Program-made: the position numbers and the translations under genes | Assembly: GCA_963707655.1 (NCBI GenBank) | Contig: OY970172.1 | Coordinates: 352,001 to 416,000, forward strand | Direction of reading: 5' to 3' | DNA from: an uncultured bacterium | GTDB taxonomy: Bacteria > Babelota > Babeliae > Babelales > Vermiphilaceae | Length of the DNA: 64,000 bases | Shown: positions 7,805 to 59,443 of the stretch, piece after piece | Position numbering within the stretch: the stretch's first letter is position 1 | Layout: each line of letters starts with the position of its first letter | Notes under the pieces: generated by a model | What the model was told of the DNA's origin: nothing | Database searches by the model: none | Seen by the model: only the letters and a program-made list of their open reading frames with translations

Positions 7805-7844
7805 TTGAGGCCGCAATAGTAATCGCAAGGAAAATAATAAGATG
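7802..7844 (+). repeat. Conserved intergenic spacer of the zinc-finger array (copies near 8881-8923, 9965-9996, 11149-11191)
   Basis: TAG(C/T)T(A/G)AGGC..AATAGTAATCGCAAGGAAAATAAxAAxATG recurs between genes and contains an AAGGA ribosome-binding site. Confidence 0.85.
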
Positions 7845-8852: not shown

Positions 8853-8920
8853 AAGCATTGAAATCCTGACTAGGAAAGAATAGCTAAGGCCGCAATAGTA
8901 ATCGCAAGGAAAATAATAAA

Positions 8921-9967
8921 ATGAAAAAGACATTATTCGTTATCCTATTGCAGGCTTGGCCCAGCTGCTGGGCTATGGTTGACGTTGAAGACGCTCCATT
9001 CAGTCAGTTGGCTCTGTTTGACCATGGATTTCAACCAGACGCGGCGTTACTAATGGAAGAAGAGGGGCATGAGGACGAACTTGCTCAATGGGCAATGCGG
9101 GAGGCAGTTTCTACACCCGATGCGGCGAACAGCAATGATGCATTACTGCCTACAGAACAAAAGGAGGCAGTCGCCGCTCTTCATGCGGCATCTTTGGTTA
9201 CCGTAAAAAAAGGCATGAAAAAGAGAAAAATAGCGAGGAGCGAGCTCTGGTGTAAGGAATGCAAACATCGGGCAGTAAATCTGTATAACTTCGATCTGCA
9301 CAAGCAAAGCAAGGGCCATTTAGAAAAAACAGGACAACCATTACTCCATTGGTCAGCATACAATTTTACCTGCGCGCCATGTGAATATGGGGCGCTTCGT
9401 GATAAGGACTTGAATGTGCACATGCTAAGCCGTTCTCACCTAATAAAAACAGGACAATCGTTACCAGATTGGCAAGCATATAAATACAGATGTGAAACAT
9501 GTAAATATGGAGCTTGCAAAAAAACAACCTTCGATGTGCACGTGCACAGCAGGAGCCATTTAGAAAAAACAGGACAATCGCTGCCAGATTGGCAAGCATA
9601 TGAATTTACGTGTGCACCATGTGAATATGGAAGCCCGCAAAAAAGTAACTTGAATTTGCACATGCAAAGCAAAGGTCATTTAGAGAAAATAGGGCAATCG
9701 TTATCAGATTGGCAAGCATATGAATTTACTTGCGAACCATGTGAATATGGGGCCGTGCGTAAGGACGATTTGAATGCACACATGCACAGCAGGAGCCATT
9801 TAGAAAAAACAGGACAATCGTTACCAGATTGGTCAGCATACAATTTCACCTGTGCACTATGTGAATATGGAACCCCGTATGAAAATGACTTAGATAGACA
9901 TATGCGCAGTAAGAAGCATGAGAAAGCTTATTTGCAATCAATTGAAGTCCTGACTAGGAAAGAATAA
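8921..9967 (+). CDS. Secreted tandem C2H2 zinc-finger protein, 6 fingers (array gene 3)
   Basis: Same architecture; six fingers. Confidence 0.9.
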   Translation: MKKTLFVILLQAWPSCWAMVDVEDAPFSQLALFDHGFQPDAALLMEEEGHEDELAQWAMREAVSTPDAANSNDALLPTEQKEAVAALHAASLVTVKKGMKKRKIARSELWCKECKHRAVNLYNFDLHKQSKGHLEKTGQPLLHWSAYNFTCAPCEYGALRDKDLNVHMLSRSHLIKTGQSLPDWQAYKYRCETCKYGACKKTTFDVHVHSRSHLEKTGQSLPDWQAYEFTCAPCEYGSPQKSNLNLHMQSKGHLEKIGQSLSDWQAYEFTCEPCEYGAVRKDDLNAHMHSRSHLEKTGQSLPDWSAYNFTCALCEYGTPYENDLDRHMRSKKHEKAYLQSIEVLTRKE

Positions 9968-9993
9968 ATAGTAATTACAAGGAAAATGATAAG

Positions 9994-11151
9994 ATGAAAA
10001 AGATATTACTCGCTATCATAATGCTGACGGCCTCCAGCGGCAGGGCGATGCTTGAAGTTGAAGATGCTCCATTCGGTCAGTTGGCTCTGTTTGACTATGG
10101 ATTTCAATCAGGTACGCCGTTGTCACTGGTTGTAGAAGGGGACGAACTTGCACAATGGGCGATGCGGGAGGGAGCTTCTACACCTGATGCGGCAAACAGC
10201 ATCGATGCATTATTGTCTACAGAACAAAAGAAAGCAGTCGCTGCTCTTCATGCGGCATCTTTGGTTACCGTAAAAAAAGGCATGAAACAGAGAAAAATAG
10301 CGAGAAGTAAGCTGTGGTGCAAGGAATGCAAATATCGGGCAGGAAATCTGAATCACTTTGATGAGCACAAGCGAACCAAGGGCCATTTGGAAAAAACAGG
10401 ACAACCATTACCACATTGGTCAACATATGATTTTTCCTGCGAACCATGTGAATATGGGGTCGTGCGTAAGAAGGATTTGAATATACACATGCGAAGCAAA
10501 GGCCATTTAGAAAAAACGGGACAATCGCTACCAGATTGGGCAGCATACGATTTTACCTGCGCACCATGTGAATATGGAGCTTTGAAAAAAGCAACTTTGA
10601 ATTTGCACAAGCGAACCAAGGGCCATTTAGAAAAAACAGGACAATCGCTACCAGATTGGTCAACATATGATTTTTCCTGCGAACCATGTGAATACGGAAC
10701 CATGAAAAAAACAACCTTGAATGACCACATGCAAAGCAAGAGCCATTTAGAAAAAGTAGGACAATCGTTATCAGATTGGCAAGCATACGATTTCACCTGT
10801 GCACTATGTAAATATGGCACCACGCAAAAAGTAAACTTGAATGCACACATGCAAAGCAAGGGCCATTTAGAGAAAGCAGGGCAATCGTTGGCGTGGGATG
10901 CATATCAATATACATGCGCACCATGTGAATATGGAACCCCGCAAAAAAGATGCTTGAATGCACACATGCTCAGCAAGGATCATTTAGAAAAAACAGGACA
11001 ATCATTGCCAGATTGGCAAGCATACAATTTCACCTGTGCACTATGTAAATATGGAACTCCGCATAAAAGGAACTTAGATAGACATATGCGCAGTAAGAAG
11101 CATGAGAAAGCTTATTTGAAATCAATTGAAGTTCCGGCTAGGAAAGAATAG
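9994..11151 (+). CDS. Secreted tandem C2H2 zinc-finger protein, 7 fingers (array gene 4)
   Basis: Same architecture; seven fingers. Confidence 0.9.
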   Translation: MKKILLAIIMLTASSGRAMLEVEDAPFGQLALFDYGFQSGTPLSLVVEGDELAQWAMREGASTPDAANSIDALLSTEQKKAVAALHAASLVTVKKGMKQRKIARSKLWCKECKYRAGNLNHFDEHKRTKGHLEKTGQPLPHWSTYDFSCEPCEYGVVRKKDLNIHMRSKGHLEKTGQSLPDWAAYDFTCAPCEYGALKKATLNLHKRTKGHLEKTGQSLPDWSTYDFSCEPCEYGTMKKTTLNDHMQSKSHLEKVGQSLSDWQAYDFTCALCKYGTTQKVNLNAHMQSKGHLEKAGQSLAWDAYQYTCAPCEYGTPQKRCLNAHMLSKDHLEKTGQSLPDWQAYNFTCALCKYGTPHKRNLDRHMRSKKHEKAYLKSIEVPARKE

Positions 11152-11188
11152 CTAAGGCAGAAATAGTAATCGCAAGGAAAATAACAAG

Positions 11189-11986
11189 ATGAAAAAGACA
11201 TTATTCGTCATCCTAGTGCTGGCTTGCCCCAGCTGCTGGGCGATGGTTGAAGTTGAAGATGCTCCATTCGGTCAGTTGGATTTGTTTGACTATGGATTTC
11301 AACCGGGCGCGGCGTTGCTGATGGAAGAAGAGGGGAATGGGGACGAACTTGCGCAATGGGCGATGCGGGAGGCAGTTTCAGCACCCGATGCGGTGAACAG
11401 CAATAATGCATTACTGTCTACAGAACAAAAGAAGGCAATCGCTGCTCTTCATGCGGCATCTTTGGTTACCGTAAAAAAAGGCATGAAAAAGAGAAAAATA
11501 GCGAGAAGTAAGCTGTGGTGCAAGGAATGCAAATGTCGGGTAATAAATCTGAAGAACTTTGATTTGCACAAGCAAAGCAAGGGCCATTTAGAAAAAACAG
11601 GACAGCCGTTACCACATTGGTCAGCATATGAGTTTACTTGCGCACCGTGTGAATACGGGGCTTTTCTTAAGCAATCTTTGAATGCACATATGCGAAGCCG
11701 TTCCCACCTAATAAAAACAGGGCAATTGTTACCAGTTTGGCAAGCATATAAATACAGATGTGAAATATGTAAATATGGAACTCCGCATAAAGGAAACTTG
11801 AATACACACATGCAAAGCAAGGGCCATTTAGAGAAAACAGGGCAATCGTTGGTGTGGGATGCACATAGATACAGATGTGAAATATGTGAACGTGGCTTCT
11901 TGGAAAAAGGGCATTTTGATAGGCACATGCGCACTAAGAAGCATGAGAAATCAGTAACTAAAAAAACAATCGTGAGGAAAAAATAA
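11189..11986 (+). CDS. Secreted tandem C2H2 zinc-finger protein, 4 fingers (array gene 5)
   Basis: Same architecture; four fingers. Confidence 0.9.
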   Translation: MKKTLFVILVLACPSCWAMVEVEDAPFGQLDLFDYGFQPGAALLMEEEGNGDELAQWAMREAVSAPDAVNSNNALLSTEQKKAIAALHAASLVTVKKGMKKRKIARSKLWCKECKCRVINLKNFDLHKQSKGHLEKTGQPLPHWSAYEFTCAPCEYGAFLKQSLNAHMRSRSHLIKTGQLLPVWQAYKYRCEICKYGTPHKGNLNTHMQSKGHLEKTGQSLVWDAHRYRCEICERGFLEKGHFDRHMRTKKHEKSVTKKTIVRKK

Positions 11987-11987
11987 G

Positions 11988-12929
11988 ATGAAAAAGATAT
12001 TACTCGTTATCCTGTTGCTGGCTTGCCCCAGATGCTGGGCGATGGGCGAAGAAGCCTCATACTACGATCAGTTGGCCCTGTTTGACCATAGATCTCAACG
12101 AGATGTTCCCTTTTTATCAATGGAACAATGTGATGTGGACGGAATCGCGCCATGGATTATTGATGAGGAAAATCCGTTTAGCCAGTGGAATCCATCTGAC
12201 TATGAATTGCGACTAGGCACGCCATTATTGACACCGAGGCAAGAAGATGATGGGTGTGAGCTTGAGTCTTTGGCAATGCAGGGCAATGTTGTGGATCCTC
12301 ATGAGGAGCTGGACATCGGTGCATCATTGTCTACAAAACAAAAGAAAGCAGTCGCCGCTCTTCATGAGTCATCTTTGATTACCGTAAAAAAAGGTATGAA
12401 AGAGAGAAGAATAGCTAGGGGTAAGTTGTGGTGCAAGGAATGCGGATATAATGTCTGGCATAAAGGAAACTTGAATGCACACATGAAAGGCAAAGTTCAT
12501 CTAAGAAGAACAGAACAATCGTTACTAGATTGGCAAGAGCATAAACACAGATGTGCACCATGCAAATATGGTGACTGGCATAAAGGACACTTGAATGCAC
12601 ACATGAAAAGCAAAGCGCATCTAAGAAAAATAGAACAATTGTTGTCATCGGTATCGGGGCAATATCAATGTCCACCATGTGGATATGACACCCCTTTGAA
12701 GCGTAGCTGGAATGCGCACGAGCGTAGTAGGGACCATTTAGAAAAAACAGGACAGTTGTTAAAAGATTGGCGCTCATATGAATATAAATGTAAAACATGT
12801 AAACATGGCATGGCTTCCAGGCTTCAATGGGATACACACGTGCGAAGCAAGCAACATGTGCAAACAAGTAAACTGCTTATTGAAAATCAACGGAAAAGCG
12901 CCAGAGTAAAAGAAATAGCTAAAGCTTGA
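11988..12929 (+). CDS. Secreted tandem C2H2 zinc-finger protein, 4 fingers, divergent with longer acidic N-region (array gene 6)
   Basis: Signal peptide ...PRCWA-M; long D/E/W-rich N-region; four fingers. Confidence 0.88.
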   Translation: MKKILLVILLLACPRCWAMGEEASYYDQLALFDHRSQRDVPFLSMEQCDVDGIAPWIIDEENPFSQWNPSDYELRLGTPLLTPRQEDDGCELESLAMQGNVVDPHEELDIGASLSTKQKKAVAALHESSLITVKKGMKERRIARGKLWCKECGYNVWHKGNLNAHMKGKVHLRRTEQSLLDWQEHKHRCAPCKYGDWHKGHLNAHMKSKAHLRKIEQLLSSVSGQYQCPPCGYDTPLKRSWNAHERSRDHLEKTGQLLKDWRSYEYKCKTCKHGMASRLQWDTHVRSKQHVQTSKLLIENQRKSARVKEIAKA

Positions 12930-45985: not shown

Positions 45986-47404
45986 ATGAATAGCACAATT
46001 TTATATCAAAAATTTTCTTCCGGCTTGGGATGGAACGGGTTTGTGTTCGCGGTGTATAAATCACTGAGCACCATACTGTCTACCCTTTTTTTCTATAAAC
46101 TTACTACGCATGATTTTTCACTCTGGGCGACAACAAATAGCTCTATTTATCTCCTCATTCTCTGGCTCGATCTTGGGCTTTCAAAATCAGTTCCCCGCTA
46201 TACGCCGGTCTTTGCCCGCAGCGCCACAGAGCATAAACAGTTCATTATTTGGGTATGCGTGATCCAATTAATGCTTTTGCTGATAGGGATACCGTTTTTG
46301 GTCTACTACATATCAAAAACTTCTTCTTCATTGCTCTTGTTGATTATAGCCCTGGCCACGTTTATTGCGGAGGGAGCCGTTAAGATCTTTCGTCTTATGT
46401 ACCATGCGCAATTCCACAACAAACAGTTCAATCTCTATAGTACGGCTGCCATCCTGCTGGAAACGGCAATAGATGTAGTATTACTGGCCACCATCAAAGA
46501 CAGCGCCCAACTCCTTATCGGAATACTCCTGGCCAAGCTATGCTGCTCAGTGCTCTTGGCGCTCTACAGCCTGTATAATGTGCCGTCTTTATACAAAGAT
46601 AAGGAATACCCCGGTGATCAGCAGCTCAATATCATGAAGGCGATCAAAGATTGCGTGCTGCATTCATTGGCTATGGGCTCTACCACGATACTGACCAGCC
46701 TCTCCGAAAGAAACTTTCTCATTCCTCTTTTTACTGCGGCGCTGGGTAGAGAAGCAGGCAACATATTCAAGGTTGCCAATGACTGGGCATTATTGTTTTA
46801 TCGCACCGCCATCAAAACAATCGGTTATAATGATACCGCTTTATTATCCCACATAGAGACGATGCCTAACCGCAAGGCACTCTTCCCTGAGGCTTTTGCA
46901 ACCTTATCAAACAAGATTGCTACCTTATGCGTCCCGATATTGGCATTATTGGGCTTGCTACTCTTTTATAGCATACGCACCAATCACACCTCGGTTGCTT
47001 TTGAATTATTTTTTATTATAGCCATATCCTATATGACAGAGGCATTATTTTCTATGTATGAGCGGGTGCTCGAGGTGAAACGTAGATATATGTTCCTCGC
47101 TGTTTCTTATATTCCTTATATAGCAATACTCATCGGCATGTTCTTCGTATCTTCATTTGGCTTGGTAAGCTCAGTACTCTGGGTACAAGGGATACGATTG
47201 GTGCAAGTGCTCTTTTTTATCGGCTTTGTCCGATTCGGTTATGGCTTACGGTTTCCTGCACGCTTTGTAATCCGCCTGGCGCTGTATATGTTGCCCGTGT
47301 GTATTGCCCTCTATCTGATTGCTCCTTTTGCTTTACCGCCGATTTTACACGCTCAGCACCATATTAAAGCGGTGATTATGCGTCTATTGGGATACACAGA
47401 GTAG
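45986..47404 (+). CDS. Multi-pass membrane protein, MOP/Wzx flippase-like
   Basis: About 12-13 TM; DLGLSKSVPRY motif; N-terminus resembles the 42707 gene. Confidence 0.7.
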   Translation: MNSTILYQKFSSGLGWNGFVFAVYKSLSTILSTLFFYKLTTHDFSLWATTNSSIYLLILWLDLGLSKSVPRYTPVFARSATEHKQFIIWVCVIQLMLLLIGIPFLVYYISKTSSSLLLLIIALATFIAEGAVKIFRLMYHAQFHNKQFNLYSTAAILLETAIDVVLLATIKDSAQLLIGILLAKLCCSVLLALYSLYNVPSLYKDKEYPGDQQLNIMKAIKDCVLHSLAMGSTTILTSLSERNFLIPLFTAALGREAGNIFKVANDWALLFYRTAIKTIGYNDTALLSHIETMPNRKALFPEAFATLSNKIATLCVPILALLGLLLFYSIRTNHTSVAFELFFIIAISYMTEALFSMYERVLEVKRRYMFLAVSYIPYIAILIGMFFVSSFGLVSSVLWVQGIRLVQVLFFIGFVRFGYGLRFPARFVIRLALYMLPVCIALYLIAPFALPPILHAQHHIKAVIMRLLGYTE

Positions 47405-48508
47405 TAGTTATTCTATACCATTTGATCGTTAAAAATTCTCTTTACGAAGAGCACCACCGCCTGCCTTCCCCCTTTAAGGATTCTTTTTAAATACTGTTAA
47501 TCCCCCATTGTTTTTTTAATGCATTTTCTCCACAATTTCCTACAATAACTCTGTCTGGGCGATAGTTTATGGGTTATGCGTTATTTGGTTCGGCTATCAT
47601 TGCGTCTGTTTAGGTGCGTGCGATTGGTTCGTGTACGTTACTCGTATATGTGTATAGGGGTGATCTTGTTTATTAGTGGTTAAGGTCTTATATGTTACCC
47701 GTAGTAGTGTAGAGTCATTTTTAATAATAATTCTTATAATCTTTCTTAGTAATCTTGTTTCTTATTCAATTGTTTTCCTTATACGTGTTATGCACCTCTA
47801 CGCTCACCTGCTCATAGGTGCATAGATAGTGAAATAGGTAAAATGCCCCCTTTTGGATCAGTAATGTTTTCCTTATAATGATCTAGATATCTATTTGCCT
47901 AACATCGAGTACCTAGAGTACCTATAGTACGTATATCTAACTAACGTCCATATCTAATGTGCCTTATATGTGTATGTGTGCTTCTCTATATTCCTTATAT
48001 TCCTAATATTCCTATTCCTTTTCCTTATTTCTTTATTTCCTTTGTTTTCCTTACTCTTTCCCTATTATTCCCCCCTGCCCCCTTACAAACGTAGGCGCCC
48101 CATCCCGCAGCCCCTACTCTGTTACCCCTCAAAGTTATGGCGAGGGTGGTAGACGGAGTGCCCTGTCGCGCCTCCGCGCGCATGGGGGTCGGGCTCAAAA
48201 ATGAGCCGAAGAAAGCGATAAAAACAAAGAGAATACCAATGACCAAGGCTAAAAAATAGGCGGCCAAACAAAACAAAATAGCTCGAGAGAAACCAAGCAG
48301 GCCAAGCGTCAGCGCTTACCATTAAGCTCCCCCTTATTCAATTTAAAAACAGGTGTGCCACCCAGTACATCCCTACTCTGTTGCCCGGAAAAAAGCATGA
48401 GCTCGAGCCCCGCCGACCATTAAATTATACGACAGAAATATCTCTTCTGAAATTAAAACAATGAGGCGGCCAGCCACCTCAAAACTTTCAAATATACCCA
48501 TAAGAAAA

Positions 48509-48529
48509 GTTGAGTGTAACTCACTAAGA
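48509..48529 (+). promoter_or_regulatory. HAIR-like (HspR) operator upstream of dnaK
   Basis: GTTGAGT-N7-ACTAAGA versus consensus CTTGAGT-N7-ACTCAAG; an hspR gene is present at 58045. Confidence 0.5.
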
Positions 48530-48546
48530 TTATTTTAGTTAAGAGT

Positions 48547-48576
48547 TTGACAAAGTGGTGACATTTGCCTTATAAT
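48547..48576 (+). promoter_or_regulatory. Sigma70 promoter of dnaK
   Basis: TTGACA-18 nt-TATAAT. Confidence 0.75.
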
Positions 48577-48647
48577 CAAGATACATTTTTAAGTCGAAGT
48601 AATTGAGTTAAAATTAAAACATATCTATACATAAAAAGGGTCCGCTT

Positions 48648-50543
48648 ATGGCTAAAAAAATAATAGGTATCGACTTGGGTACCACCAACTCGGTGGTTGC
48701 TTTTATGGAAGGCGGAGTCGCCAAAGTGATTCCAAACAAAGAAGGTGCTAACACTACCCCATCCGTTGTGGCATTTACCAAAGATGACAAGCGCCTGGTG
48801 GGTGTTATTGCTAAAAGACAGGCGATAACCAATCCAGAGAACACTATCTTCTCTTCAAAGCGCTTTATTGGCATGGAATATGACCAAATGAAAGAAGAGA
48901 TGAAACATGTTCCCTATAAACTTGCGCGCAAACCCAATGGGGATATTGCTATTGTTGCTCAAGGTAAAGAATACAGCCCTCAAGAAATTGGTGCTGCCAT
49001 TCTTGCACAACTCAAGCAAACAGCTGAAGATTATTTAGGCGAAACAGTTACCGAAGCAGTTATTACCGTTCCTGCATATTTTAACGACTCCCAGCGCCAG
49101 GCAACCAAAGACGCCGGACGCATCGCTGGCCTTGATGTAAAGCGCATCATAAACGAGCCTACCGCTGCTGCCTTGGCATACGGCATGGACAAGAAGAAAA
49201 ATGGCACCTTGGCGGTATTTGACTTTGGTGGCGGTACCTTTGATATCTCTATCCTGGAAATCAATGATGGTGTTATCGAAGTAAAATCAACCAATGGCGA
49301 TACCCATTTGGGCGGTGATGACATCGACCAAAAATTAATCAAATACTTGGCTGATGAATTCCAAAAAGAACACGGCGTTGATTTACGCAAAGACAGCATG
49401 GCATTACAGCGCTTGAAAGAAGCTGCTGAAAAAGCAAAAATAGAACTCTCGAGCCTCTCAGAGACTGAAATCAATCTTCCCTATATCACTGCCGATGCAA
49501 CAGGGCCAAAACACTTAGTAATGAAAATATCACGTGCAAAGCTAGAATCATTGTGCGAAGATATTTTCAAACGCTTGTTGGAGCCATGCAAAAAAGCAAT
49601 GCAAGATGCGCAAATGAGCAAAGAAGCAATTAACGAAGTAATTTTGGTTGGTGGTTCAACCCGTATTCCAAAGGTACAAGCACTCGTTAAAGAATTCTTT
49701 GGTAAAGAACCGAGCAAGTCAGTAAATCCTGATGAAGTGGTTGCCCTTGGCGCTGCAATTCAAGGCGGCGTACTTGCCGGGGACATTACTGATGTATTGC
49801 TTCTTGACGTTACTCCCCTTTCTCTTGGTATTGAGACATTGGGCGGCGTAATGACCAAATTAATTGAACGTAATACAACAATTCCAACACGCAAATCACA
49901 AGTATTCTCAACCGCAGAAGACAATCAAACTGCCGTTGACATTCGTGTGTTCCAAGGTGAACGTGAATTTGCCAAAGACAATAAAATGCTGGGCCAATTC
50001 CGCCTCGAGGGAATTCCCGCAGCACGCCGCGGTATGCCACAAGTTGAAGTTACTTTTGACATTGATGCAAACGGCATTGTGCATGTTTCGGCAAAAGATA
50101 AGGCTACTAATAAAGAGCAAAAGATCACTATCACCAGCAGCAGCGGCTTAAGCAAAGAAGAAGTTGATCGCATGGTGCATGAAGCAAAAGCTCATGAAGC
50201 TGAAGATAAGAAAATGCGTGAAGCGGTTGAAAAACGCAACCATCTTGATGGCTTGGTGTTGAGTATCGAAAAAACTCTCAGCGAGAATAAAGATAAACTT
50301 GCTGAAGAAGATATTAAAACAACAGAAGCAGCTCTTGAAAAAGCAAAACAAGCGCTTAAAGATCATGCCGATAACGCAGATGAGTTGCAAAAAGCAACTG
50401 ACGAGCTTATTCAGGCATCACACAAAGTAGCTGAAATTTTGTATAAGCAAGGCGCAGCACAAGAAGGCGCAAGCACAGAGTCTTCTGAATCAGAAACAAA
50501 AAAAACTGATGAAGAACCGATCGATGCTGAAATTAATGACTAA
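48648..50543 (+). CDS. dnaK: Chaperone DnaK
   Basis: [43 protein letters not shown]. Confidence 0.99.
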
Positions 50544-50569
50544 GTAATAATACTTACAACTTAAAACAG

Positions 50570-50609
50570 GGAGAGAGATCGCGATTATGCATCTCTCTCC
50601 TTTTTCTTT
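50570..50609 (+). terminator. dnaK terminator
   Basis: GGAGAGAGAT…ATCTCTCTCC stem followed by TTTTT. Confidence 0.8.
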
Positions 50610-50638
50610 ATAGATGCACGCATCCGTCTTTTGCAGCT

Positions 50639-50684
50639 CTTGCAAAAAAATAAAAACTCATCGATACTGTGGGTGAGTTTTTTG
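50639..50684 (+). promoter_or_regulatory. Repeated promoter/operator (copies at 51126-51170, 51824-51855, 52348-52390, 53642-53687)
   Basis: CTTGCAAAA…AAAACTCA(C/T)CGATA(A/C)TGT.GGTGAGTTTTT precedes each family gene. The palindrome is near-perfect in copies 1-2 and degenerate in copies 3-5. Confidence 0.8.
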
Positions 50685-50709
50685 TAACACCTTTTAAAGA
50701 AAGATGCCT

Positions 50710-51111
50710 ATGTTTAAAAAATTATTTTTCTTGCCTCTCGCGGTAATTGCTTCTGTTCACGCAATGGATAATGCAGAAACAAACAATCCTGCACCATGTG
50801 CCGCCAACAAAGATTCACTCACGCAATTAGTAAAAACAGCAACCATAGTTACCATAATCGCGCGCCACGATTCAAACAAAATAGAAAAGTTTGAATTTCC
50901 CATTCAGGACCAAACCACTGCTGGTGATGTGCAGTCTGCTGCGATGTACAAAATAAATGATAAAAAAAGCTTTCTTGGAGATTACCACAATGACGCGATC
51001 TTGGTTACTCCCAATCACAAAAACATGCTTATGGGCCACTCGCTCATAAAAGCAGAAATGACGAAATACAATACATCAACCTTTGACCTCGTCCCAGAAC
51101 ATTGGGTTTGA
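50710..51111 (+). CDS. Secreted small protein, RA/ubiquitin-like fold candidate (family member 1)
   Basis: MFKK…VHA-MD; VTII…FPIQDQTTAGDV…MTKYNTSTFDLV. Confidence 0.75.
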   Translation: MFKKLFFLPLAVIASVHAMDNAETNNPAPCAANKDSLTQLVKTATIVTIIARHDSNKIEKFEFPIQDQTTAGDVQSAAMYKINDKKSFLGDYHNDAILVTPNHKNMLMGHSLIKAEMTKYNTSTFDLVPEHWV

Positions 51112-51200
51112 TCCCTTCCCGCATACTTGCAAAACAATAAAAACTCACCGATAATGTAGGTGAGTTTTTTATTTAACAGCCCGCCAAAAAAGGAGTAATC

Positions 51201-51740
51201 ATGTTTAAAAAATTACTTTTCTTATCTCTATCACTCGTTGTTGCCGCCACTGCAATGGATATCCCTAATTTGATTGATGAAGATAGTACAACCGCACAGT
51301 TTGCAATTTATGTTGATGGCACTGTAGCCTTTTTGGCGCCACAGCCTGAACGTAAAAACATTTGTGTTTCATTTCCAATCCGTGGCCCGCTCGCTCGTGA
51401 CATACGCTGGTGTCGTCTTTATTGTCTCGTTAAAGATACAACCACGGCGAACCATATTAAACAGTTTATCACAAAGGCAATGCCTACCGCATATTCCAAA
51501 GACCCCCAATATAAAGACCATATAAGCTATAATTCATATACACTTTGCGCTGTTGATTACAAACCTATCCTGTGCGGCCTATTGAGATCACGAGAACTCA
51601 GACCGTTGGATGACCACGAATTAGTTAATCCATACACATATGCAAAAGATACGCACTTTACCCTCGTCCCAAAGAATAACGAATTACTGTTGATCACAGA
51701 ACCTGACAAATCCCCCATCGATACTGAAATCGGAGACTAA
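51201..51740 (+). CDS. Secreted small protein, Ras-association-like (member 2)
   Basis: MFKK…ATA-MD; LVKDTTTANHI…YTLCAV…RPLDDHELV…FTLV. Confidence 0.75.
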   Translation: MFKKLLFLSLSLVVAATAMDIPNLIDEDSTTAQFAIYVDGTVAFLAPQPERKNICVSFPIRGPLARDIRWCRLYCLVKDTTTANHIKQFITKAMPTAYSKDPQYKDHISYNSYTLCAVDYKPILCGLLRSRELRPLDDHELVNPYTYAKDTHFTLVPKNNELLLITEPDKSPIDTEIGD

Positions 51741-51902
51741 GCAATAATACTCACAACCCACACAAAGAAGAGCTATTCATTCTTTTCTTTTTTTCTACCG
51801 GCTTTTCATATCACTTTCATACTCTTGCAAAAATGATTAACACCTACCGATACTATACTATGGGCTTTATGATTGTTTACCGTCTCAAAAAATGAAAGCG
51901 CA

Positions 51903-52295
51903 ATGTTTAAAAAAATACTTTTCTCATCTACTTTCTTAATTACTCTTCATGCAATGGATAATCCGGTACATAATCAAACTATCACCGTGATATCAAGAAT
52001 ACAGTTGTTGCCGGTCGCGTTCCAGATCCCCGTTAATGATACCACTACCATACAAGAAGTAGACGCAACCATGAAGAAGATGTGCCAATCACAGCTGATC
52101 AAACATCTTGCAGGCGCACCCTGCCAGCCACTCACTCAAGATAGTACTGAATTATGTGCACTCTATAGATCATGGACAACATTAAAGCTATGCAGGCACT
52201 GCTCTGGCCCATTAGAAAAAGCACAAACAATTAAAAGTGTTATAAATCACCTGAATCCCGATTTATTCTATTTTAGCCTGAAGGATGGCATCTGA
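51903..52295 (+). CDS. Secreted small protein (member 3)
   Basis: MFKK…LHA-MD; ITVI…IPVNDTTTIQEV…ELCA…PLEKAQTIK. Confidence 0.75.
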   Translation: MFKKILFSSTFLITLHAMDNPVHNQTITVISRIQLLPVAFQIPVNDTTTIQEVDATMKKMCQSQLIKHLAGAPCQPLTQDSTELCALYRSWTTLKLCRHCSGPLEKAQTIKSVINHLNPDLFYFSLKDGI

Positions 52296-52418
52296 ACCCC
52301 CAACCCCTAATAAGAAACACGCACCATCAGCAGGCTCTGCGCAAATTCTTGCAAAAATAATAAAATTTACTAATAATATGGGTGAGTTTTATTTTGTTCG
52401 TCTTAAAAAAGAGTAGGC

Positions 52419-52850
52419 ATGTTTAAAAATTTATTTTTCTTATCTGTATTCAGCATTATCTCTGTGGGCGCTATGGATGATTCGAAAGTAGAACAAGGTA
52501 AAGAAGCACTACCCCAATGGATAAAAGAGGCAACTGTAGTTACCGTAATTTTAGAACGTGGCATTTTCAACGACACCACAATACAGGTCCCTATTTATGA
52601 TGCAACATCCGTGGGCGAGGTGCGCACAAGAGCCATTACTTCACTCAATGAATTAGAATACATCCACAGCGGGAGAAAAACATACCAATTTACTGATGCA
52701 GAATTGGTGGCTCGCTCCTCTAGCATTTATTACACAAAAAGAACTTTGATGGGCCAGTCTTCCATCAAAAACATGATGAAAAAATACAACACAGCAACAT
52801 TTGAACTCATCCAGAGACAAAACAAAGCATCTGAACAGTGCGAAAAATAA
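52419..52850 (+). CDS. Secreted small protein (member 4)
   Basis: MFKN…VGA-MD; ATVVTVIL…VPIYDATSVGEV…MKKYNTATFELI. Confidence 0.78.
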   Translation: MFKNLFFLSVFSIISVGAMDDSKVEQGKEALPQWIKEATVVTVILERGIFNDTTIQVPIYDATSVGEVRTRAITSLNELEYIHSGRKTYQFTDAELVARSSSIYYTKRTLMGQSSIKNMMKKYNTATFELIQRQNKASEQCEK

Positions 52851-52871
52851 CCGCTCTCTTAATCTCACGCG

Positions 52872-53465
52872 CTATTTCCAGATGAGCGGCGCAATGTCGT
52901 CAACCGTTACGTTGTTATCCAAGCTCAACTCGCTATTGGTTACCCCTTTCCTGCCATTGTCCGGGCCAGTTTGCGGACGAACGCCGTCTTTATCAACGGT
53001 GATATACACGGTTTTGCCTGCAGTGAATTTATTATAAAAATCCGGCACTGGTGCCTTTTGTTCAAACCAAGTGCCGCCACCCTTTGACCTACAATTATTT
53101 TCAAACTCTTCTCTCAGAATTTTTTCTGAAACTTTGCTCAAAGGATCAATTGTCCATATAGCTAGATAAAAATCTCCTTGCAAATGAAAACCTCTTATCT
53201 GCCGGGATCCGCTATCCAACAGCGTAAGTAGGCGAACGTATGAGTTAACTTTCAGAGGCAGCCGACTACTCTTATCCAGACTAGCAAAAAGGCCTCTTTC
53301 ATAAGCCATGACCCATACAGGGCCACCAGTCTTATTGAGAACTTCTGCTGCGACATCTTCTTCCGTATGAATTTTTCTCTGCGCATCTCCATCAGCGCTC
53401 TGAGCCTGAAATGCTATGATTAATAGCATGCCGCGCACAATATTTTTTTCCCAATGCAGCTTCAT
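52872..53465 (-). CDS. Hypothetical secreted protein
   Basis: 197 aa; signal ending AQSA-D; GGGGGAAG RBS. Confidence 0.65.
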   Translation of the reverse strand: MKLHWEKNIVRGMLLIIAFQAQSADGDAQRKIHTEEDVAAEVLNKTGGPVWVMAYERGLFASLDKSSRLPLKVNSYVRLLTLLDSGSRQIRGFHLQGDFYLAIWTIDPLSKVSEKILREEFENNCRSKGGGTWFEQKAPVPDFYNKFTAGKTVYITVDKDGVRPQTGPDNGRKGVTNSELSLDNNVTVDDIAPLIWK

Positions 53466-53720
53466 AGTACTTCCCCCCTTGCGCTCAATGCGTTATTACC
53501 TTTTCGATGGAGCAATGCTTGCCAATAATTTTTAAAAATGCCCATTTTCATAACTCAGTGTAGCAGCACAAAAATTCAAATTGCAATGAACCCATCGCGG
53601 CGAGTCCCCAATAATGGGTAAAGTATCCTTTACCGTCAGACCTTGCAAAAATAGTAAAAGTCACTTACATTATCGGTAAGTTTTTTTGATCGCCTACTAT
53701 ACTATTGGATCTATTCGAAA

Positions 53721-54122
53721 ATGATTAAAAATATGATGCTTTTTTCCCTCTCTCTTGCTGCTTCTGCCCATGCAATGACGGATAGCATAGATCTGCCCCA
53801 ATCTATAAAAGATGCATCTACGGTGACGGTAATTTTACAAAAACATTGGTTCTCGAGCGACACCGAAACGCAGATTGCCATCACCGACACAACCACCGTT
53901 GCACACGTATGCCATGCAGGAAAAAATCAATTAAATGCTCTGCGAACACAAAAAACAGATGATCAGCGTCGCCTTACCTACACACTTACTGCGCAATTCT
54001 ACTGCAATCCCACTGATGACATTCTTTCTGAATCACAAGAATTGCCAAAAAACCGTTTCATCAAAGAAATGATGAAAAAATATGACACAGATATTTTTGT
54101 CCTCTGCGAAAATCAAAGTTAA
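53721..54122 (+). CDS. Secreted small protein (member 5)
   Basis: MIKN…AHA-MT; ASTVTVIL…IAITDTTTVAHV…MMKKYDTDIFVL. Confidence 0.78.
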   Translation: MIKNMMLFSLSLAASAHAMTDSIDLPQSIKDASTVTVILQKHWFSSDTETQIAITDTTTVAHVCHAGKNQLNALRTQKTDDQRRLTYTLTAQFYCNPTDDILSESQELPKNRFIKEMMKKYDTDIFVLCENQS

Positions 54123-54140
54123 AAAACTGCTCGAAATAGA

Positions 54141-54170
54141 AAAAGGGAGCCGATAAAAGCTCCCTTCTTT
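54141..54170. terminator. Bidirectional terminator
   Basis: AAAAGGGAGC-loop-GCTCCCTTCTTT between convergent genes. Confidence 0.75.
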
Positions 54171-54189
54171 ATCTCAAAAATTTCTAAGC

Positions 54190-54423
54190 TTAGTGCTTAC
54201 AATCTTTGCTACATGCCATGAAGAGCATGATCAAGCTAAAGACACCGGCAACGCCGATACAATAATAAATAGGATCAACAATGCTCATTGAAGTCATTGA
54301 ACCAAGTTTTTCAACAAGATTATGACCCAGCGGCTTTAATCCCCAGTTAATTGCCCCTAATGAAGCAAGCAACCAAGCAACCATAGCAACAATTTTCATG
54401 GCGCCATTGTGGTGATGAAACAT
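54190..54423 (-). CDS. DUF378-like small membrane protein
   Basis: LGAINWGL…NLV…IYYCIGVAG; AAGGAG RBS before ATG 54423. Confidence 0.8.
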   Translation of the reverse strand: MFHHHNGAMKIVAMVAWLLASLGAINWGLKPLGHNLVEKLGSMTSMSIVDPIYYCIGVAGVFSLIMLFMACSKDCKH

Positions 54424-54693
54424 AACTATTCTCCTTCGTGAATAATTTGTAAAAAGATGAGACCTACTCTTCTTCTCATAACATAAAAAAAGAGTGGATT
54501 CAATGGTTCTGTGAGAATGTGCAGGGAGCATGCATGAAAAACTTATAAATAAGGCATTTTAATGATTCGTGCCAACTGTTTGCTCCCCGGTTCATTGACG
54601 CCCTATACATTTAATAGTCCAAAGTTGAAAAAAAGGTTCTTTTCCAGCACACTTATAGATACATAATCAATGTTGAAACAATAGGAATATCAA

Positions 54694-55806
54694 ATGACCA
54701 TTCAAGCCGGCCTGGTAGGATTGCCCAATGTGGGCAAATCAAGTTTATTTAATGCTCTAACCAAATCAAGTGTCCCTGCTGAAAATTACCCTTTCTGCAC
54801 GATTGACCCACACATGGCCATCACCTATGTACCCGATCAGCGCCTGGATGACATGCAAAGAATATACGGTTCAAAAAAGCATATTCCCGCTACGGTTAAT
54901 TTTGTTGATATCGCCGGCCTGGTCAAAGGAGCAGCTTCTGGTCAGGGTCTGGGCAACCAGTTCTTGAGCCACATTCGTGAAGTGGACCTCATTTTACACG
55001 TATTGCGCTGCTTTGAAGATAGCAACATTCTCCACTCAGGCGACACGATTGACCCCATCTCCGATTATGAGATTATTATTGCCGAACTGATGCTCAAAGA
55101 TCTTGAATCGGTAGAAAAACGATTACAAAAGATGGAAAAATTGATCAAAACAAGCGCAAGCAAGCCGGCAGAAAAAAAAGAGCTGGAAGCAGAAGAAATA
55201 ATATTAAAAAAACTTATGCCCGCTTTAAATGCTGCTGATCTCAAGGCGGTACACACGCTCACTAAAAATGCGCCAAGCACCCTGATCCCTCTATTGTCGG
55301 CAAAAAACTTTCTTGTTATAGCCAATGTTGCCGAAGACGAGCTTGAAAATGATGGCTACAAGAACAATAAGCATTATCAAAAATTAGTGCAGCACTTTGG
55401 CGCCGATCGCGTAATTGCCGTATGCGCAAAGGTTGAATATGAACTCTCACAATTAAATCCTGAAGAAGCACAAGAGATGATGGGATTGCTCGGTATACAA
55501 GAACGCAGCCTTGATCGCATCATTCAAGAAACCTATAATCATCTGGGCCTTATCACCTTTTTTACCTGCGGTCCGCAAGAAGCTCATGCCTGGCCAATAA
55601 AAAAGGGTATTACTATTCGTAAAGCGGCAGGTGAAATCCATTCCGATCTTGAGCGTGGCTTTATCTGCGCAGAAATCTTTAACTGCAACGATCTTATCAA
55701 AGCAGGCAGCGAGGCAAAGCTCAAAGACACCGGCAAGATGCGCACCGAGGGCCAAGATTATGTGGTACAAGATGGTGACGTGGTTCATATTAAATTTAAT
55801 GTATGA
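54694..55806 (+). CDS. ychF: Ribosome-binding ATPase YchF
   Basis: GLVGLPNVGKS, NYPFCTIDP, DIAGLVKGA, IHSDLERGFI, YVVQDGD. Confidence 0.98.
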   Translation: MTIQAGLVGLPNVGKSSLFNALTKSSVPAENYPFCTIDPHMAITYVPDQRLDDMQRIYGSKKHIPATVNFVDIAGLVKGAASGQGLGNQFLSHIREVDLILHVLRCFEDSNILHSGDTIDPISDYEIIIAELMLKDLESVEKRLQKMEKLIKTSASKPAEKKELEAEEIILKKLMPALNAADLKAVHTLTKNAPSTLIPLLSAKNFLVIANVAEDELENDGYKNNKHYQKLVQHFGADRVIAVCAKVEYELSQLNPEEAQEMMGLLGIQERSLDRIIQETYNHLGLITFFTCGPQEAHAWPIKKGITIRKAAGEIHSDLERGFICAEIFNCNDLIKAGSEAKLKDTGKMRTEGQDYVVQDGDVVHIKFNV

Positions 55807-55834
55807 TTTTCGCTCACGAAGATATGGGGATAGT

Positions 55835-56392
55835 ATGACTATACAGCAAGCTCTGCATCTCTCTTTGTATCTTGGCTTAATAATACCGGCTATTAATTTC
55901 CCCATGGCGTCACCCGATTATCAAAGTCAAATTGTTCATTGTTGGAAAAAAACCGATCTGAGGGATGCGGTAAAAGATGATATAGTGGTGCGGGATAATA
56001 CCATAGAAATATTAACTTACCTCACACAAGTCAGTTCACCTTTCAAATGGATCGATGCGGATCAAAATGATTTTATTGATTTTCTTTATAAACAATTAAA
56101 CACAGATGAACAGACAAAAAAGCGTGATGCACCTTTAATGCTACCCTTGCCTCAGGATGCGCCACTTCAAGCACAAAGAGAACGCAAGCAAAGAATCAGC
56201 GATTTTATTCTCAGCCTCTACGGTGAGCTCCAGGTAAAACGCTCTTTGGAGAAGCATGATCAGTATTTGAAAAAACAAATGGCTGCGGAACAACTGACAC
56301 AATTCAAAACGTACAAAAAGGGAAGATTTATCTTGTATGTACGGCAACCGGTAGAGCCCTCTGAAAAAACTATCTCTGCCGACAGCAACTGA
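55835..56392 (+). CDS. Hypothetical secreted protein
   Basis: Start at MTIQQ; hydrophobic N-terminus. Confidence 0.6.
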   Translation: MTIQQALHLSLYLGLIIPAINFPMASPDYQSQIVHCWKKTDLRDAVKDDIVVRDNTIEILTYLTQVSSPFKWIDADQNDFIDFLYKQLNTDEQTKKRDAPLMLPLPQDAPLQAQRERKQRISDFILSLYGELQVKRSLEKHDQYLKKQMAAEQLTQFKTYKKGRFILYVRQPVEPSEKTISADSN

Positions 56393-56492
56393 GAATAGTA
56401 CAAAGAAAATCCCGCTACTTTGCATACAACAATACAAAATAACGGGATATTTTTATGCCATCATCGCCACAGTACGTTCTGGCAAGATACTA

Positions 56493-56753
56493 TTACTTAA
56501 TTTTATAAGAAGAAGCATCCTCCACTTGGCCTTCACGATCATGTTCTTTTTCTTCTTGGCGCTCAAGCTCTGCCTTACGATCTTTTTCTCCCTGGCTTTC
56601 ACGACGCCTTTCACTATCTATCTTTTCTTGTGCTTCTTGTCTGTCGGTGTAACCACCACGATTTGTTCCTGCACCGTTGTTACTATAGGCATACACTGGG
56701 GAAGCGCTGAGCAAAAATGCAATACCAAATACTATCGGTTTACTCATCTTCAT
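56493..56753 (-). CDS. Small secreted highly charged protein
   Basis: MKMSK…SPVYA signal; E/R/K-rich body. Confidence 0.7.
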   Translation of the reverse strand: MKMSKPIVFGIAFLLSASPVYAYSNNGAGTNRGGYTDRQEAQEKIDSERRRESQGEKDRKAELERQEEKEHDREGQVEDASSYKIK

Positions 56754-56881
56754 AATTATTCCCCTCTCTCATTTTTATTAACACCCATTTGGCCATAAAA
56801 AAACTCCCCGCCTTTCAAAGGCCGAGAATGAATGAGCCAACTCATTGTAATAAAAACGGGGGCTTTTAAGCCCCCGCATAG

Positions 56882-57283
56882 TTACTTAGAATTAATGGTA
56901 TAGCCACCATCAAGTATTCTTGCATTGGTGTTAGCTGGATAACCTACTTGTGCCGGAGTACCTGTCTGGTATCCTGTAGGCTGTTGATATCCGGTAGGGG
57001 CATGAAGATGACCGTTACCGGCCTGATAACCTACTTGTGCTTGGGTACCATTACCAGCTTGATAACCTACTTGGGCTTGGCTACCTCGCACAGGAAGAGC
57101 ATGCATTTCTCCCTCATGGTAAGGCTGGCTACGCATTTCTCCCTCATAGTAAGGCTGGCTATGCATTTCGCCTTCATGGTAAGGAAGAGTTCGTACTCTG
57201 CCCTCATCTAAACCTACTGCTGCCAATATAGGCGCAGACATTAATAAAGCTACCGCTATTAAAGCTTTTTTATTCATCTTCAT
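56882..57283 (-). CDS. Small secreted repeat protein
   Basis: MKMNK…APILA signal; 3x PY(H/Y)EGEM(H/R) and 2-3x AQVGY repeats. Confidence 0.78.
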   Translation of the reverse strand: MKMNKKALIAVALLMSAPILAAVGLDEGRVRTLPYHEGEMHSQPYYEGEMRSQPYHEGEMHALPVRGSQAQVGYQAGNGTQAQVGYQAGNGHLHAPTGYQQPTGYQTGTPAQVGYPANTNARILDGGYTINSK

Positions 57284-57347
57284 AAACTATTCTCCTTTTT
57301 TATATATCACTATCGGTCTCTTAAAAAATCAAAATCTTTATAAACAC

Positions 57348-57698
57348 TCAATCCTTTTTTAATGCAGGCTCGCCCGCAAAGAATATATATCGCCGCGCTG
57401 CACCCGGCATAGCCATATCTTCATTTTTCAAGTAATACGCACCCACATAATTGGTAAACATAAGGTGTGGCGGCGTACCCGTTGCAGAAACTTTTTCACC
57501 ATACACGGGAGAAATAACGGTGCCATCGGAACAGATGATTGCACTATCTTTGATCGGTTGCCCTGCCTGCAAAGAGATAAAATCCTCTTTACCCACAAAA
57601 AAGCATTCCCGCCCATCTTTTACCCCACCTGCCGTATTCAGGAGCAAAATTAGGCTGTTTAGTACAAAAAACTTTCCTGCGCTACTTGAATTAACCAT
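57348..57698 (-). CDS. Hypothetical protein
   Basis: 116-aa ORF; no recognised motif. Confidence 0.35.
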   Translation of the reverse strand: MVNSSSAGKFFVLNSLILLLNTAGGVKDGRECFFVGKEDFISLQAGQPIKDSAIICSDGTVISPVYGEKVSATGTPPHLMFTNYVGAYYLKNEDMAMPGAARRYIFFAGEPALKKD

Positions 57699-57882
57699 AT
57701 CCCATTCCCCACATATCTTCTATCTACCCTTATAATAATACAAAGTGAATTTAAAAAACAAGCATTTTGTGTTTGAAATCAAGCATATTTTTTATCAAAT
57801 ATCGGGAAATATGGTATACTATCTTATAAATAAAGAATAGGGTATAGTTACTTGAAACTAATGAGTTTTTTGGTGGGTCACA

Positions 57883-58018
57883 ATGAAGCGCCCAACGGGT
57901 TTAAATCCGTTGTGTTGCGCGTAATTCTTCGAAGCCAACCCTACTACGCTAAAGCTTCGAAGGGTTCTAATTGCCGATTCATCCCCGAGACAAAATGTTT
58001 CGGGGGGTCTGGCGAAGT
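57883..58018. repeat. Hairpin cluster, MITE/REP-like
   Basis: Three palindromes: CAACGG-GTTTAAAT-CCGTTG, CTTCGAAGC…GCTTCGAAG, CCCCGAGACA-AAA-TGTTTCGGGG. Confidence 0.55.
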
Positions 58019-58044: not shown

Positions 58045-58530
58045 ATGAAAAGAAAAAAAGGTTTTTTTTCCATATCTGCAGTGGCAAAAATGTTTTCTGT
58101 ACATCAGCAAACAATTCGTCTGTATGAAAAAGAGGGATTGATCACTCCCAAAAGATCTGAGGGTAATACCCGTCTTTTCTCGGATGAAGATGTAGAAAGG
58201 CTCGAGGAAATCATGTATCTAACTCACCAACTGGGTATCAACCTTGCCGGGGTTGAAATGATTTTTAAGCTCAAAAAACAGATTAAAAAAATGCAAAAAA
58301 ATATGAATAGACTCTTTGATGAAACGCAGCAAGAGCTTGATAAAGAAGCAGAAATCCCGCAACAAGCGGTAAAAAATAGCGCCCGCACCTTACTAAAAAT
58401 TAAGCACGAGCGGGTAATGCCCGGCGAGACGGCACATAGAGAGTTGTTGCCGGCACCGGAAAAGAGTACAACGAAGCAACAAAACAATTTCTCCCTAGAG
58501 AACTGGGAAGTCGAATATGATGAAGATTAG
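58045..58530 (+). CDS. hspR: MerR-family heat-shock repressor HspR
   Basis: SISAVAKMFSVHQQTIRLYEKEGLITPKRSEGNTRLFS…LTHQLGINLAGVE. Confidence 0.85.
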   Translation: MKRKKGFFSISAVAKMFSVHQQTIRLYEKEGLITPKRSEGNTRLFSDEDVERLEEIMYLTHQLGINLAGVEMIFKLKKQIKKMQKNMNRLFDETQQELDKEAEIPQQAVKNSARTLLKIKHERVMPGETAHRELLPAPEKSTTKQQNNFSLENWEVEYDED

Positions 58531-58579
58531 AATTTTTGAGATTTTTTTACTATAGCTCTCATGACAGGAGGCATTGACC

Positions 58580-59443
58580 ATGTTCGCAAATTATTTTAAA
58601 ACCACCCTACTTCTTGGCGCATTGAGTGGATTATTGGTAGCGACCGGATCATTACTGGGCGGAACGCACGGGCTAACCATTGCTCTGTGGATGGCAGCGG
58701 TGATCAATGGCATAGCATATTTTTTTTCGGACCGTATCGTTCTTGGTATGTATGGCGCGCAAAAACTTGATGCCGACTCTTATCCCCACCTCTATAGCAC
58801 GGTAGAAGAATTGTGTGGCATTATGCAACTCCCCTTGCCAAAATTGTGGATCGTAAATACCCCAATGGCAAATGCTTTTGCAACGGGCCGCTCTCCGCGC
58901 CATGCCTCAATAGCAGTTACCCGGGGCATTTTAGAAATTCTTGATGCCGATGAATTGCGCGGCGTTTTAGCACATGAACTGGCCCACATTAAAAATCGCG
59001 ATATTTTAATCGGCACCGTTGCCGCCATGATCGCCTCGGCTATAGGCTATCTGGGAAGTATGGCGCGCCATTCATTGTTTTGGGGATCATCCAATAAAAA
59101 GCAGAACAACAATACTGCGGTGACTTTAATAGTGGCAATTTTTGTTCCCCTCGCCGCTACATTGATGCAACTGGCAGTTTCACGCTCACGCGAATATGCA
59201 GCAGATGAAACGGGCGCACATTCATGCCATGATCCGTTGGCATTAGCCTCCGCTCTTGAAAAACTGCACCGGCACACCGCGCATACCCATGCATATGCAA
59301 AAAACGAAGCGCATGCAAGCAGCGCGGCCCTCTTCATTGTGCACCCGTTGAGTTGTAACACAGTACGCTCATTATTTGCTACCCATCCTCCATTGGAAAA
59401 GCGAATAGAGCGCCTGCATCAAATGCACAGAAAAATGTTTTAA
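58580..59443 (+). CDS. htpX: Zinc metalloprotease HtpX
   Basis: NAFATGR, GVLAHELAH, SRSREYAAD, FATHPP. Confidence 0.95.
   Translation: MFANYFKTTLLLGALSGLLVATGSLLGGTHGLTIALWMAAVINGIAYFFSDRIVLGMYGAQKLDADSYPHLYSTVEELCGIMQLPLPKLWIVNTPMANAFATGRSPRHASIAVTRGILEILDADELRGVLAHELAHIKNRDILIGTVAAMIASAIGYLGSMARHSLFWGSSNKKQNNNTAVTLIVAIFVPLAATLMQLAVSRSREYAADETGAHSCHDPLALASALEKLHRHTAHTHAYAKNEAHASSAALFIVHPLSCNTVRSLFATHPPLEKRIERLHQMHRKMF

Follow-up and report, generated by a model that had tools for sequence, protein, structure and literature searches.

A tandem array of signal-peptide proteins with a predicted, ubiquitin-related beta-grasp fold behind dnaK in a genome of Babelales

The array and its members

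We analyzed a window of 64,000 nucleotides (nt) from an uncultured bacterium of the Vermiphilaceae (Babelota; Babeliae; Babelales), positions 352,001 to 416,000 of contig OY970172.1 (assembly GCA_963707655.1); the genome is a single contig of 1.09 Mb, with 41% GC and 89% completeness. Between dnaK and ychF the window carries an array of five genes, P1 to P5, all of them intact open reading frames (ORFs) on the plus strand (Table 1). We characterized them as tandem signal-peptide proteins with a predicted beta-grasp fold, likely derived from a ubiquitin of eukaryotic type. Each N-terminus follows a basic-hydrophobic-A-M-[D/T] pattern that looks signal-like, as judged by eye from the sequence. 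As a mark of ankyrin effectors in this genome the A-M-D signal failed (one of eight ankyrin-like ORFs). Short DNA contigs from three sequencing runs were almost identical to parts of the array, at low depth; this supports the reality of the sequence only.

The original prediction saw here five related secreted-type genes with a common motif pattern and a 'Ras-association/ubiquitin-like' signature. The relatedness was borne out; the motif pattern exceeds chance but is spread unevenly over the members. VTVI occurs in P3, P4 and P5, with VTII in P1 and ICVS in P2; D.T[T/S] is present in all five, IK..M.KY in three (P1, P4, P5). The YTLCAV and RPLDDHELV segments reported for P2 do occur there, at 113-118 and 134-142.

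When local alignment scores of the mature parts were compared with those of 2000 shuffles, P1-P4 (z 23), P4-P5 (z 21) and P1-P5 (z 5) stood out, the pairs of P3 with P1, P4 and P5 were marginal (z 2.2-3.3) and all four pairs with P2 were non-significant (z 0.1-1.6). A profile was built from 27 sequences, this genome excluded, and searched on 2967 ORFs; it recovered all five members (P4 at 3.7e-14, P5 at 5.8e-13, P3 at 6.3e-13, P1 at 2.1e-7, P2 at 9.4e-4; the best reversed-sequence control scored 0.087) as well as two further genes elsewhere in the genome. As the 27 sequences had been gathered in searches seeded with the window proteins, this recovery indicates mutual homology rather than independent discovery. 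P2 is tied to the family also by a relative in another genome (L099), 38% identical and in the corresponding locus, and by the shared upstream cassette described below.

Outside the window, a sixth clear member is located at G000:C1:471840-472223 (+); it is solitary and has no promoter cassette. A tandem trio of signal-peptide ORFs (109-119 amino acids, aa) with a beta-grasp-like look was seen at G000:C1:212159-213238 (-); its best E-value with the family profiles ranged from 1.5e-4 to 7.5e-4, the other two ORFs being non-significant, and just past the trio, at 213319-213375, lies an orphan partial copy of the 3' end of gatA.

Stepwise sequence link to ubiquitin

In a survey of 261 genomes of the phylum, three profile rounds matched 7, 18 and then 24 genomes; the last count includes one false match to YchF (G169) and some near-canonical ubiquitin domains. 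The family is missing from 217 genomes and from a further 20 listed as blanks. Profile matches in G163 and G071 (internal stops) and in G207 were judged spurious and dropped, as was the repeat protein P0015.

Pfam was scanned with 33 distinct relatives (35 scans, including two near-duplicates). The ubiquitin family PF00240 was matched by 21 of the 33 at E<=0.1, in seven cases above the cut-off of 25.4 bits, while no relative matched a Ras-association (RA) or Ras-binding (RBD) domain; there were also single weak matches to the PI3K adaptor-binding domain (0.016) and FERM F0 (0.031). Across the phylum PF00240 was found in 35 of 261 genomes (15 above cut-off). A 30-row family profile compared with PDB retrieved ubiquitin in all 60 rows listed of 339, with a single-domain E of about 4e-6 to 1.5e-5 over ubiquitin residues 2-45.

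The members at dnaK are connected to ubiquitin in steps. In profile-profile comparison the dnaK-locus subfamily matched intermediates (over 100 columns; probability 98.7, E 4e-16), which in turn matched the near-canonical ubiquitin domains found in Babeliales (probability 96.9, E 1.3e-10); one of these domains matches ubiquitin itself at E 1e-28. On this sequence evidence, descent from a ubiquitin-type domain appears very probable.

Near-canonical ubiquitin domains were observed in signal-peptide proteins of other Babeliales (L037:230-2379, L038:1417-1989, L039:1129-2181, L040:1486-1797). L037 has two tandem genes; in L038 a glycine run follows the ubiquitin domain directly and could be exposed by cleavage. 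At L018:1471-2328 and L017:1480-2112 the domain sits C-terminally in secreted proteins that are longer (286 and 211 aa).

In NCBI, one relative is auto-annotated as 'ubiquitin-like domain-containing protein', and two homologues carry the name Ca. Babeliales, their genomes being of the same family in one case and of the same order in the other. A word-based homologue search with P4 alone had a sole match, the variant P0007, which is 94% identical, has a different tail and stops at 109 aa, representing a frameshifted allele or an assembly error. No fused, longer forms came up in a search for them; this is weak evidence. Single-protein scans of sequence collections returned the source loci only, none in viral contigs; these scans barely covered the range outside the phylum. 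The ESM Atlas gave only leads below 0.9 (ubiquitin-type clusters at 0.79-0.83), which we did not count as evidence.

Anatomy of the family domain

Positions were mapped onto a near-canonical domain in ubiquitin numbering, for 30 family rows. The core is kept: T22 in 26 of 30 rows, I/V23 in 28, K27 in 24, L/I43 in 27, L/I50 in 28 and F/L67 in 29. The binding surface is not: L8 is retained in 5 of 30 rows, and histidine is not among the six commonest residues at position 68. In the window members L8, I44 and H68 occur in none of the five and V70 in two (the alignment of the I44 region is less sure for P1, P4 and P5).

The segment between L43 and L50 has 14-24 residues in all 30 rows versus 6 in all five near-canonical domains compared, and this accounts for Pfam matches ending near position 41-44. 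Tryptophan makes up 4.3% of this insertion versus 1.0% elsewhere. A helix with the pattern IK..M..Y precedes strand 5. In the window subfamily the beta1-beta2 loop and helix 1 are lengthened as well, and the EGIP..QQ segment is lost. A C-terminal Gly-Gly was found in none of the five window members and none of 26 relatives (one L099 member ends in a single glycine), nor does the family have a conserved C-terminal cysteine. Several dnaK-locus members (L099:3097-5274; P2 and P3 of the window) carry 2-6 cysteines in or near the insertion; these could form disulfides or bind metal.

Predicted fold

AlphaFold was run for P2 and P4 on 30-row alignments containing ubiquitin-like relatives. Both models show the beta1-beta2-alpha1-beta3-(beta4)-beta5 topology of a beta-grasp, as the original prediction expected (P4: mean pLDDT 83, pTM 0.72; P2: mean pLDDT 74, pTM 0.66); in P2 the insertion forms a long beta3-beta4 hairpin. 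Foldseek returned 11 matches at E<=0.001 for P4, with the Ring1B C-terminal domain, ubiquitin, archaeal ubiquitin and PI3K, and none below 0.001 for P2. In a wide structure search P4 matched FERM domains first (Z 9.6-9.3), then RA and RBD domains at 9.2 (PLC-epsilon, SIN1). P2 matched the RA domains of NORE1A (Z 9.6, root mean square deviation 3.3, 100 aligned residues) and PLC-epsilon (9.4), with ubiquitin-type chains at 7.2-8.2; its RA lead over FERM and RBD is within 1-1.2 Z. The matches listed by both searches are beta-grasp domains. For P2 and P4 we consider the predicted fold settled as beta-grasp; structure alone cannot separate RA, FERM-F1 and ubiquitin among these models.

Distribution and turnover

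L099 repeats the gene order of the window locus: dnaK, then five family genes, then a DUF378 gene followed by ychF. The flanking proteins are 94.3% (DnaK) and 94.5% (YchF) identical (dS 0.8-0.87, dN 0.03-0.04), yet the best of the 25 array pairs reaches only 39% identity, the best dN being 0.57-0.7; this supports the rapid divergence first proposed for the family, and the reading frames are intact in all 10 array genes. Since dS between the array genes is saturated, old paralogy with turnover is inseparable from fast change.

The array lies behind dnaK in three genomes (window, L004 and L099), and in most others the gene is placed elsewhere; one genome of the same genus has two genes at the dnaK site, one of them a clear family member. 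Across 29 family loci no neighbor gene recurs beyond close-kin synteny.

Upstream cassettes and the dnaK-tail copy

A cassette of TTGCAA and a -10-like element precedes each of the five members. In four of them a palindrome lies over the -10-like element; it occurs nowhere else in the genome, and one copy is kept in L099. The palindrome could serve as an operator or else terminate read-through transcription. A generic promoter scan (9 sites versus 11.3 expected) gives no support by itself, so that the case for the cassette rests on its repetition. With the HAIR-like pattern of the HspR operator, no match was found near the array, and an Rfam scan of 47000-58000 found no family.

The end of P2 runs into a copy of the dnaK tail that is 71% identical to the original over 73 nt (score 62; mean 28 and maximum 39 in 200 shuffles). 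The best L099 match of P2 has a similar end, and recombination at the 3' end of dnaK therefore contributed to the expansion of the array.

Table 1. Features of the array and its flanks (positions in the window)
Feature	Coordinates	Strand	Remarks
dnaK, left flank	48648..50543	+	NCBIfam DnaK above cut-off
dnaK final ~13 codons, stop and 3' flank	50503..50575	+	copied at 51700-51772
Promoter-like cassette upstream of P1	50639..50684	+	TTGCAA, 17 nt, -10-like hexamer; palindrome 50653-50682 overlaps
P1	50710..51111	+	133 aa; signal peptide and putative remodelled ubiquitin-derived beta-grasp domain
Promoter-like cassette upstream of P2	51126..51171	+	with palindrome 51139-51168
P2	51201..51740	+	179 aa; most divergent member; predicted beta-grasp, long beta3-beta4 hairpin
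Orphan dnaK 3'-end copy	51700..51772	+	in frame with the end of P2, whose C-terminus runs into it
Promoter-like cassette upstream of P3	51824..51854	+	palindrome decayed
P3	51903..52295	+	130 aa; Trp-bearing beta3-beta4 insertion as in relatives; long insertion after helix 1
Promoter-like cassette upstream of P4	52348..52393	+	with palindrome 52362-52390
P4	52419..52850	+	143 aa; AlphaFold beta-grasp, mean pLDDT 83
Signal-peptide-like ORF between P4 and P5	52872..53465	-	unrelated, not a family member
Promoter-like cassette upstream of P5	53642..53687	+	with palindrome 53656-53685
P5	53721..54122	+	133 aa; signal peptide and putative remodelled ubiquitin-derived domain
Small membrane protein, DUF378-like, right flank	54190..54423	-	same site in L004 and L099
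ychF, right flank	54694..55806	+	TIGR00092 above cut-off

The L099 counterpart of the DUF378-like protein is 82% identical and matches PF04070 above cut-off. The ORF between P4 and P5 has paralogs at G000:C1:804113 and 802930 and no Pfam match. Elsewhere in the window, an HspR-like regulator followed by htpX is located at 58045-59443, 3.5 kb from the array, and another paralog array of six tandem ORFs with near-identical signal-peptide N-termini at 6647-12929 (+).

Proposed function

The reading we favor, with a probability of roughly 45%, is that the family consists of non-conjugatable, ubiquitin-derived binders exported to a protist host and probably directed against its ubiquitin system. 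The proteins would leave the cytoplasm by Sec export, then be released by a type II system or in vesicles, and act inside the host as non-catalytic decoys, most likely by binding proteins of its ubiquitin system. On a fixed core, two elements beside the usual binding face of ubiquitin, the beta1-beta2 loop and the longer beta3-beta4 hairpin, would give new specificities, and every paralog would have a target or host allele of its own. No match to E1 (PF00899) or JAB (PF14464) was found in the 89% complete genome, with positive controls; together with the missing Gly-Gly, the lack of E1 and E2 matches in the genome points to action by binding only.

Several observations fit such a role. Babelota (Dependentiae) are described as parasites of protists (PMC12172432, PMC4776705); a type II secretion system is reported for the phylum (PMC4776705), and the genome has two secretins. 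Signal peptides are reported on 44% of Chromulinavorax proteins (PMC6561590). Babela is reported to encode secreted deubiquitinases, F-box and RING proteins, with many ubiquitin-system effectors (PMC4378268), and ubiquitin-like proteins are named, in general terms, among effectors of intracellular bacteria (PMC3417536). BfUbb of Bacteroides is reported to inhibit ubiquitination in vitro without a Gly-Gly (PMC3352274), and engineered ubiquitin variants with a changed surface or a beta1-beta2 insertion to be specific inhibitors (PMC5434665).

A number of points weigh against this reading. The link to ubiquitin is transitive, through intermediates: Pfam and NCBIfam gave nothing relevant on P1-P5 (PF00240 in none of the five), the direct profile comparison of the subfamily with near-canonical ubiquitin was non-significant (probability 1.2, E 0.043) and the subfamily profile found nothing in PDB at E<=10. 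The tree, with 4 of 32 inner branches well supported, does not resolve root or donor, so that donor and direction are inferred only. The window members do not have the Ile36-side motif that relatives keep; having lost it, they may no longer touch proteins of the ubiquitin system at all. A Sec signal reaches the periplasm only, host delivery being assumed. E2 (PF00179) and USP also had no match in the genome, no positive control being registered for these two in an assembly 89% complete. Finally, pairwise dN/dS below 1 with saturated dS gives no support for positive selection.

One could suppose instead that the proteins are ubiquitin-derived and host-directed, but bind outside the ubiquitin system, the hairpin or the beta1-beta2 loop inserting in membranes or touching other host proteins, e.g. 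of the vacuole or mitochondrion. The loss of ubiquitin's surface patches would agree with this, as would an insertion that is acid-poor and rich in Trp, Tyr and Phe (14.5% versus 7.0%), with Trp in 14 of 30 rows; Chromulinavorax is reported to remodel host mitochondria and to shed vesicles (PMC6561590). However, the insertions of P1, P2, P4 and P5 have no Trp, and the high sequence diversity would fit protein targets better than lipids. We regard this alternative as unlikely.

The location behind dnaK in three genomes may suggest periplasmic or surface proteins that serve the bacterium itself in stress or at the envelope. The divergence might also be weakly constrained birth-and-death drift, as the dN of the best pairs approaches the dS of the flanks (0.8-0.87) and P0007 ends early with a different tail. 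Both possibilities seem improbable in view of the separate promoter-like cassette of each gene, the kept frames and core residues, the placement elsewhere in most other genomes and the absence of the family from so much of the phylum.

We give marginally less weight to a role like that of BfUbb, the main studied secreted bacterial ubiquitin homologue, which is reported to act antibacterially (PMC11467351) and likewise combines a signal peptide with the absence of Gly-Gly (PMC3352274): the proteins would enter the periplasm of co-infecting Babeliales or endosymbionts and block an essential protein there. Quick turnover at strain level fits bacterial conflict; but BfUbb is 63% identical to ubiquitin and has a C-terminal disulfide, whereas the family has neither such identity nor a conserved C-terminal cysteine, no immunity-like partner gene recurs at its loci, and obligate intracellular parasites would meet few rivals.

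The RA half of the original title was not supported, in contrast to the ubiquitin-like half, which the PF00240 matches and the profile chain uphold. PF00788 (RA), RBD and PI3K-RBD had no family match in P1-P5 or the relatives scanned, and across the phylum PF00788 was seen in one of 261 genomes at E<=0.01, in none above cut-off. The T.T..V and L.D motifs read as an RA signature align to T22-I23 and L50-D52, positions that ubiquitin also has. Ras binders are reported to conserve only two basic positions (PMC8163975) and to bind Ras mostly through main-chain contacts of beta-sheets, the residues involved being variable (PMC5147862); sequence would then be no bar to GTPase binding. In the family the positions corresponding to CRAF R59 and K84 are basic in none and one of the five window members, respectively, and both in one of 30 rows. 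The register of these two positions is presumed, not taken from a superposition. Least credible among the alternatives is mimicry of RA/RBD domains, in which strand 2 and the end of helix 1 would bind host GTPases of the Ras/Rap family in their GTP-loaded state: RA and RBD domains are among the best structural matches of P2 and P4 and strand 2 of P2 is basic, but profile matches are missing, the conserved basic positions are mostly not basic, FERM-F1 and other beta-grasp folds tie RA within 1 Z for P4, and a longer hairpin would raise Z by adding aligned residues. From sequences and models, convergence through the growth of loops is the best account of the RA likeness.

Relation to known systems

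The closest known proteins are BfUbb and BoUbb of Bacteroides, alike in the signal peptide, the absence of Gly-Gly and of genomic E1/E2, and the patchy distribution (PMC3352274, PMC11467351). In these accounts BfUbb differs in its identity to ubiquitin, in being single copy, in its C-terminal Cys/disulfide and in having a bacterial peptidyl-prolyl isomerase as target; the family, in contrast, is remote from ubiquitin, carries the beta3-beta4 insertion together with a new helix ahead of strand 5, no longer has the I44 patch and forms tandem arrays in protist parasites. With PF00240 (ubiquitin, NEDD8, type II UBL) it shares the fold and core residues, and relatives keep EGIP..QQ.L, whereas the window members combine a secreted-type N-terminus and the insertion with replaced surface patches. 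RA, RBD and FERM-F1 domains share the fold, the long beta3-beta4 hairpin and the long helix 1, and give the best structural Z; they differ in that no sequence link joins them to these stand-alone secreted bacterial proteins.

Engineered ubiquitin variants (PMC5434665) use the same scaffold with a changed surface, one with an 8-residue beta1-beta2 insertion, and bind deubiquitinases or E3 ligases; being laboratory products with few changes, they are a mechanistic analogy and not relatives. The ubiquitin-related effectors of an amoeba symbiont, i.e. the deubiquitinases, F-box, RING and Ulp1-ATPase proteins described for Babela (PMC4378268), come from the same phylum or niche and share signal peptides and lineage-specific expansion; those described there are enzymes or adaptors, unlike stand-alone binders, and among the matches listed from the Babela supplements (6 of 13) there is no stand-alone secreted ubiquitin-fold protein. 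Bacterial E1-E2-Ubl-JAB conjugation systems also place a beta-grasp protein in a bacterium, but the family has a signal peptide and no Gly-Gly, and no E1, E2 or JAB in the locus or found in the genome. No published description of the family was found in full-text literature, with subscription journals covered in part, so a prior mention is possible.

Implications

Secreted bacterial ubiquitin homologues have so far been studied mainly as BfUbb. The present family occurs in about 20 Babeliales genomes, its most derived members being invisible to Pfam, and gives a predicted fold and a likely origin to some of the phylum's many unannotated secreted proteins. It also cautions that loop growth can give a ubiquitin an RA-like predicted shape. 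One could speculate, with considerable doubt, that Babeliales captured a eukaryote-type ubiquitin, added a secretion signal and removed the Gly-Gly, and so came to hold a natural ubiquitin-variant library, in tandem arrays whose members are replaced from one close relative to the next and vary in the very loops that engineers use for inhibitors of deubiquitinases and E3 ligases; the phylum, spanning near-canonical ubiquitin to forms with a predicted shape closer to RA, would then preserve a living path to an RA-like architecture. The proteins, of about 110 residues, are easy to express; if they block ubiquitin enzymes, they would be natural counterparts of engineered inhibitors. The family suggests that parasites of protists may use ubiquitin itself as a scaffold for binders.

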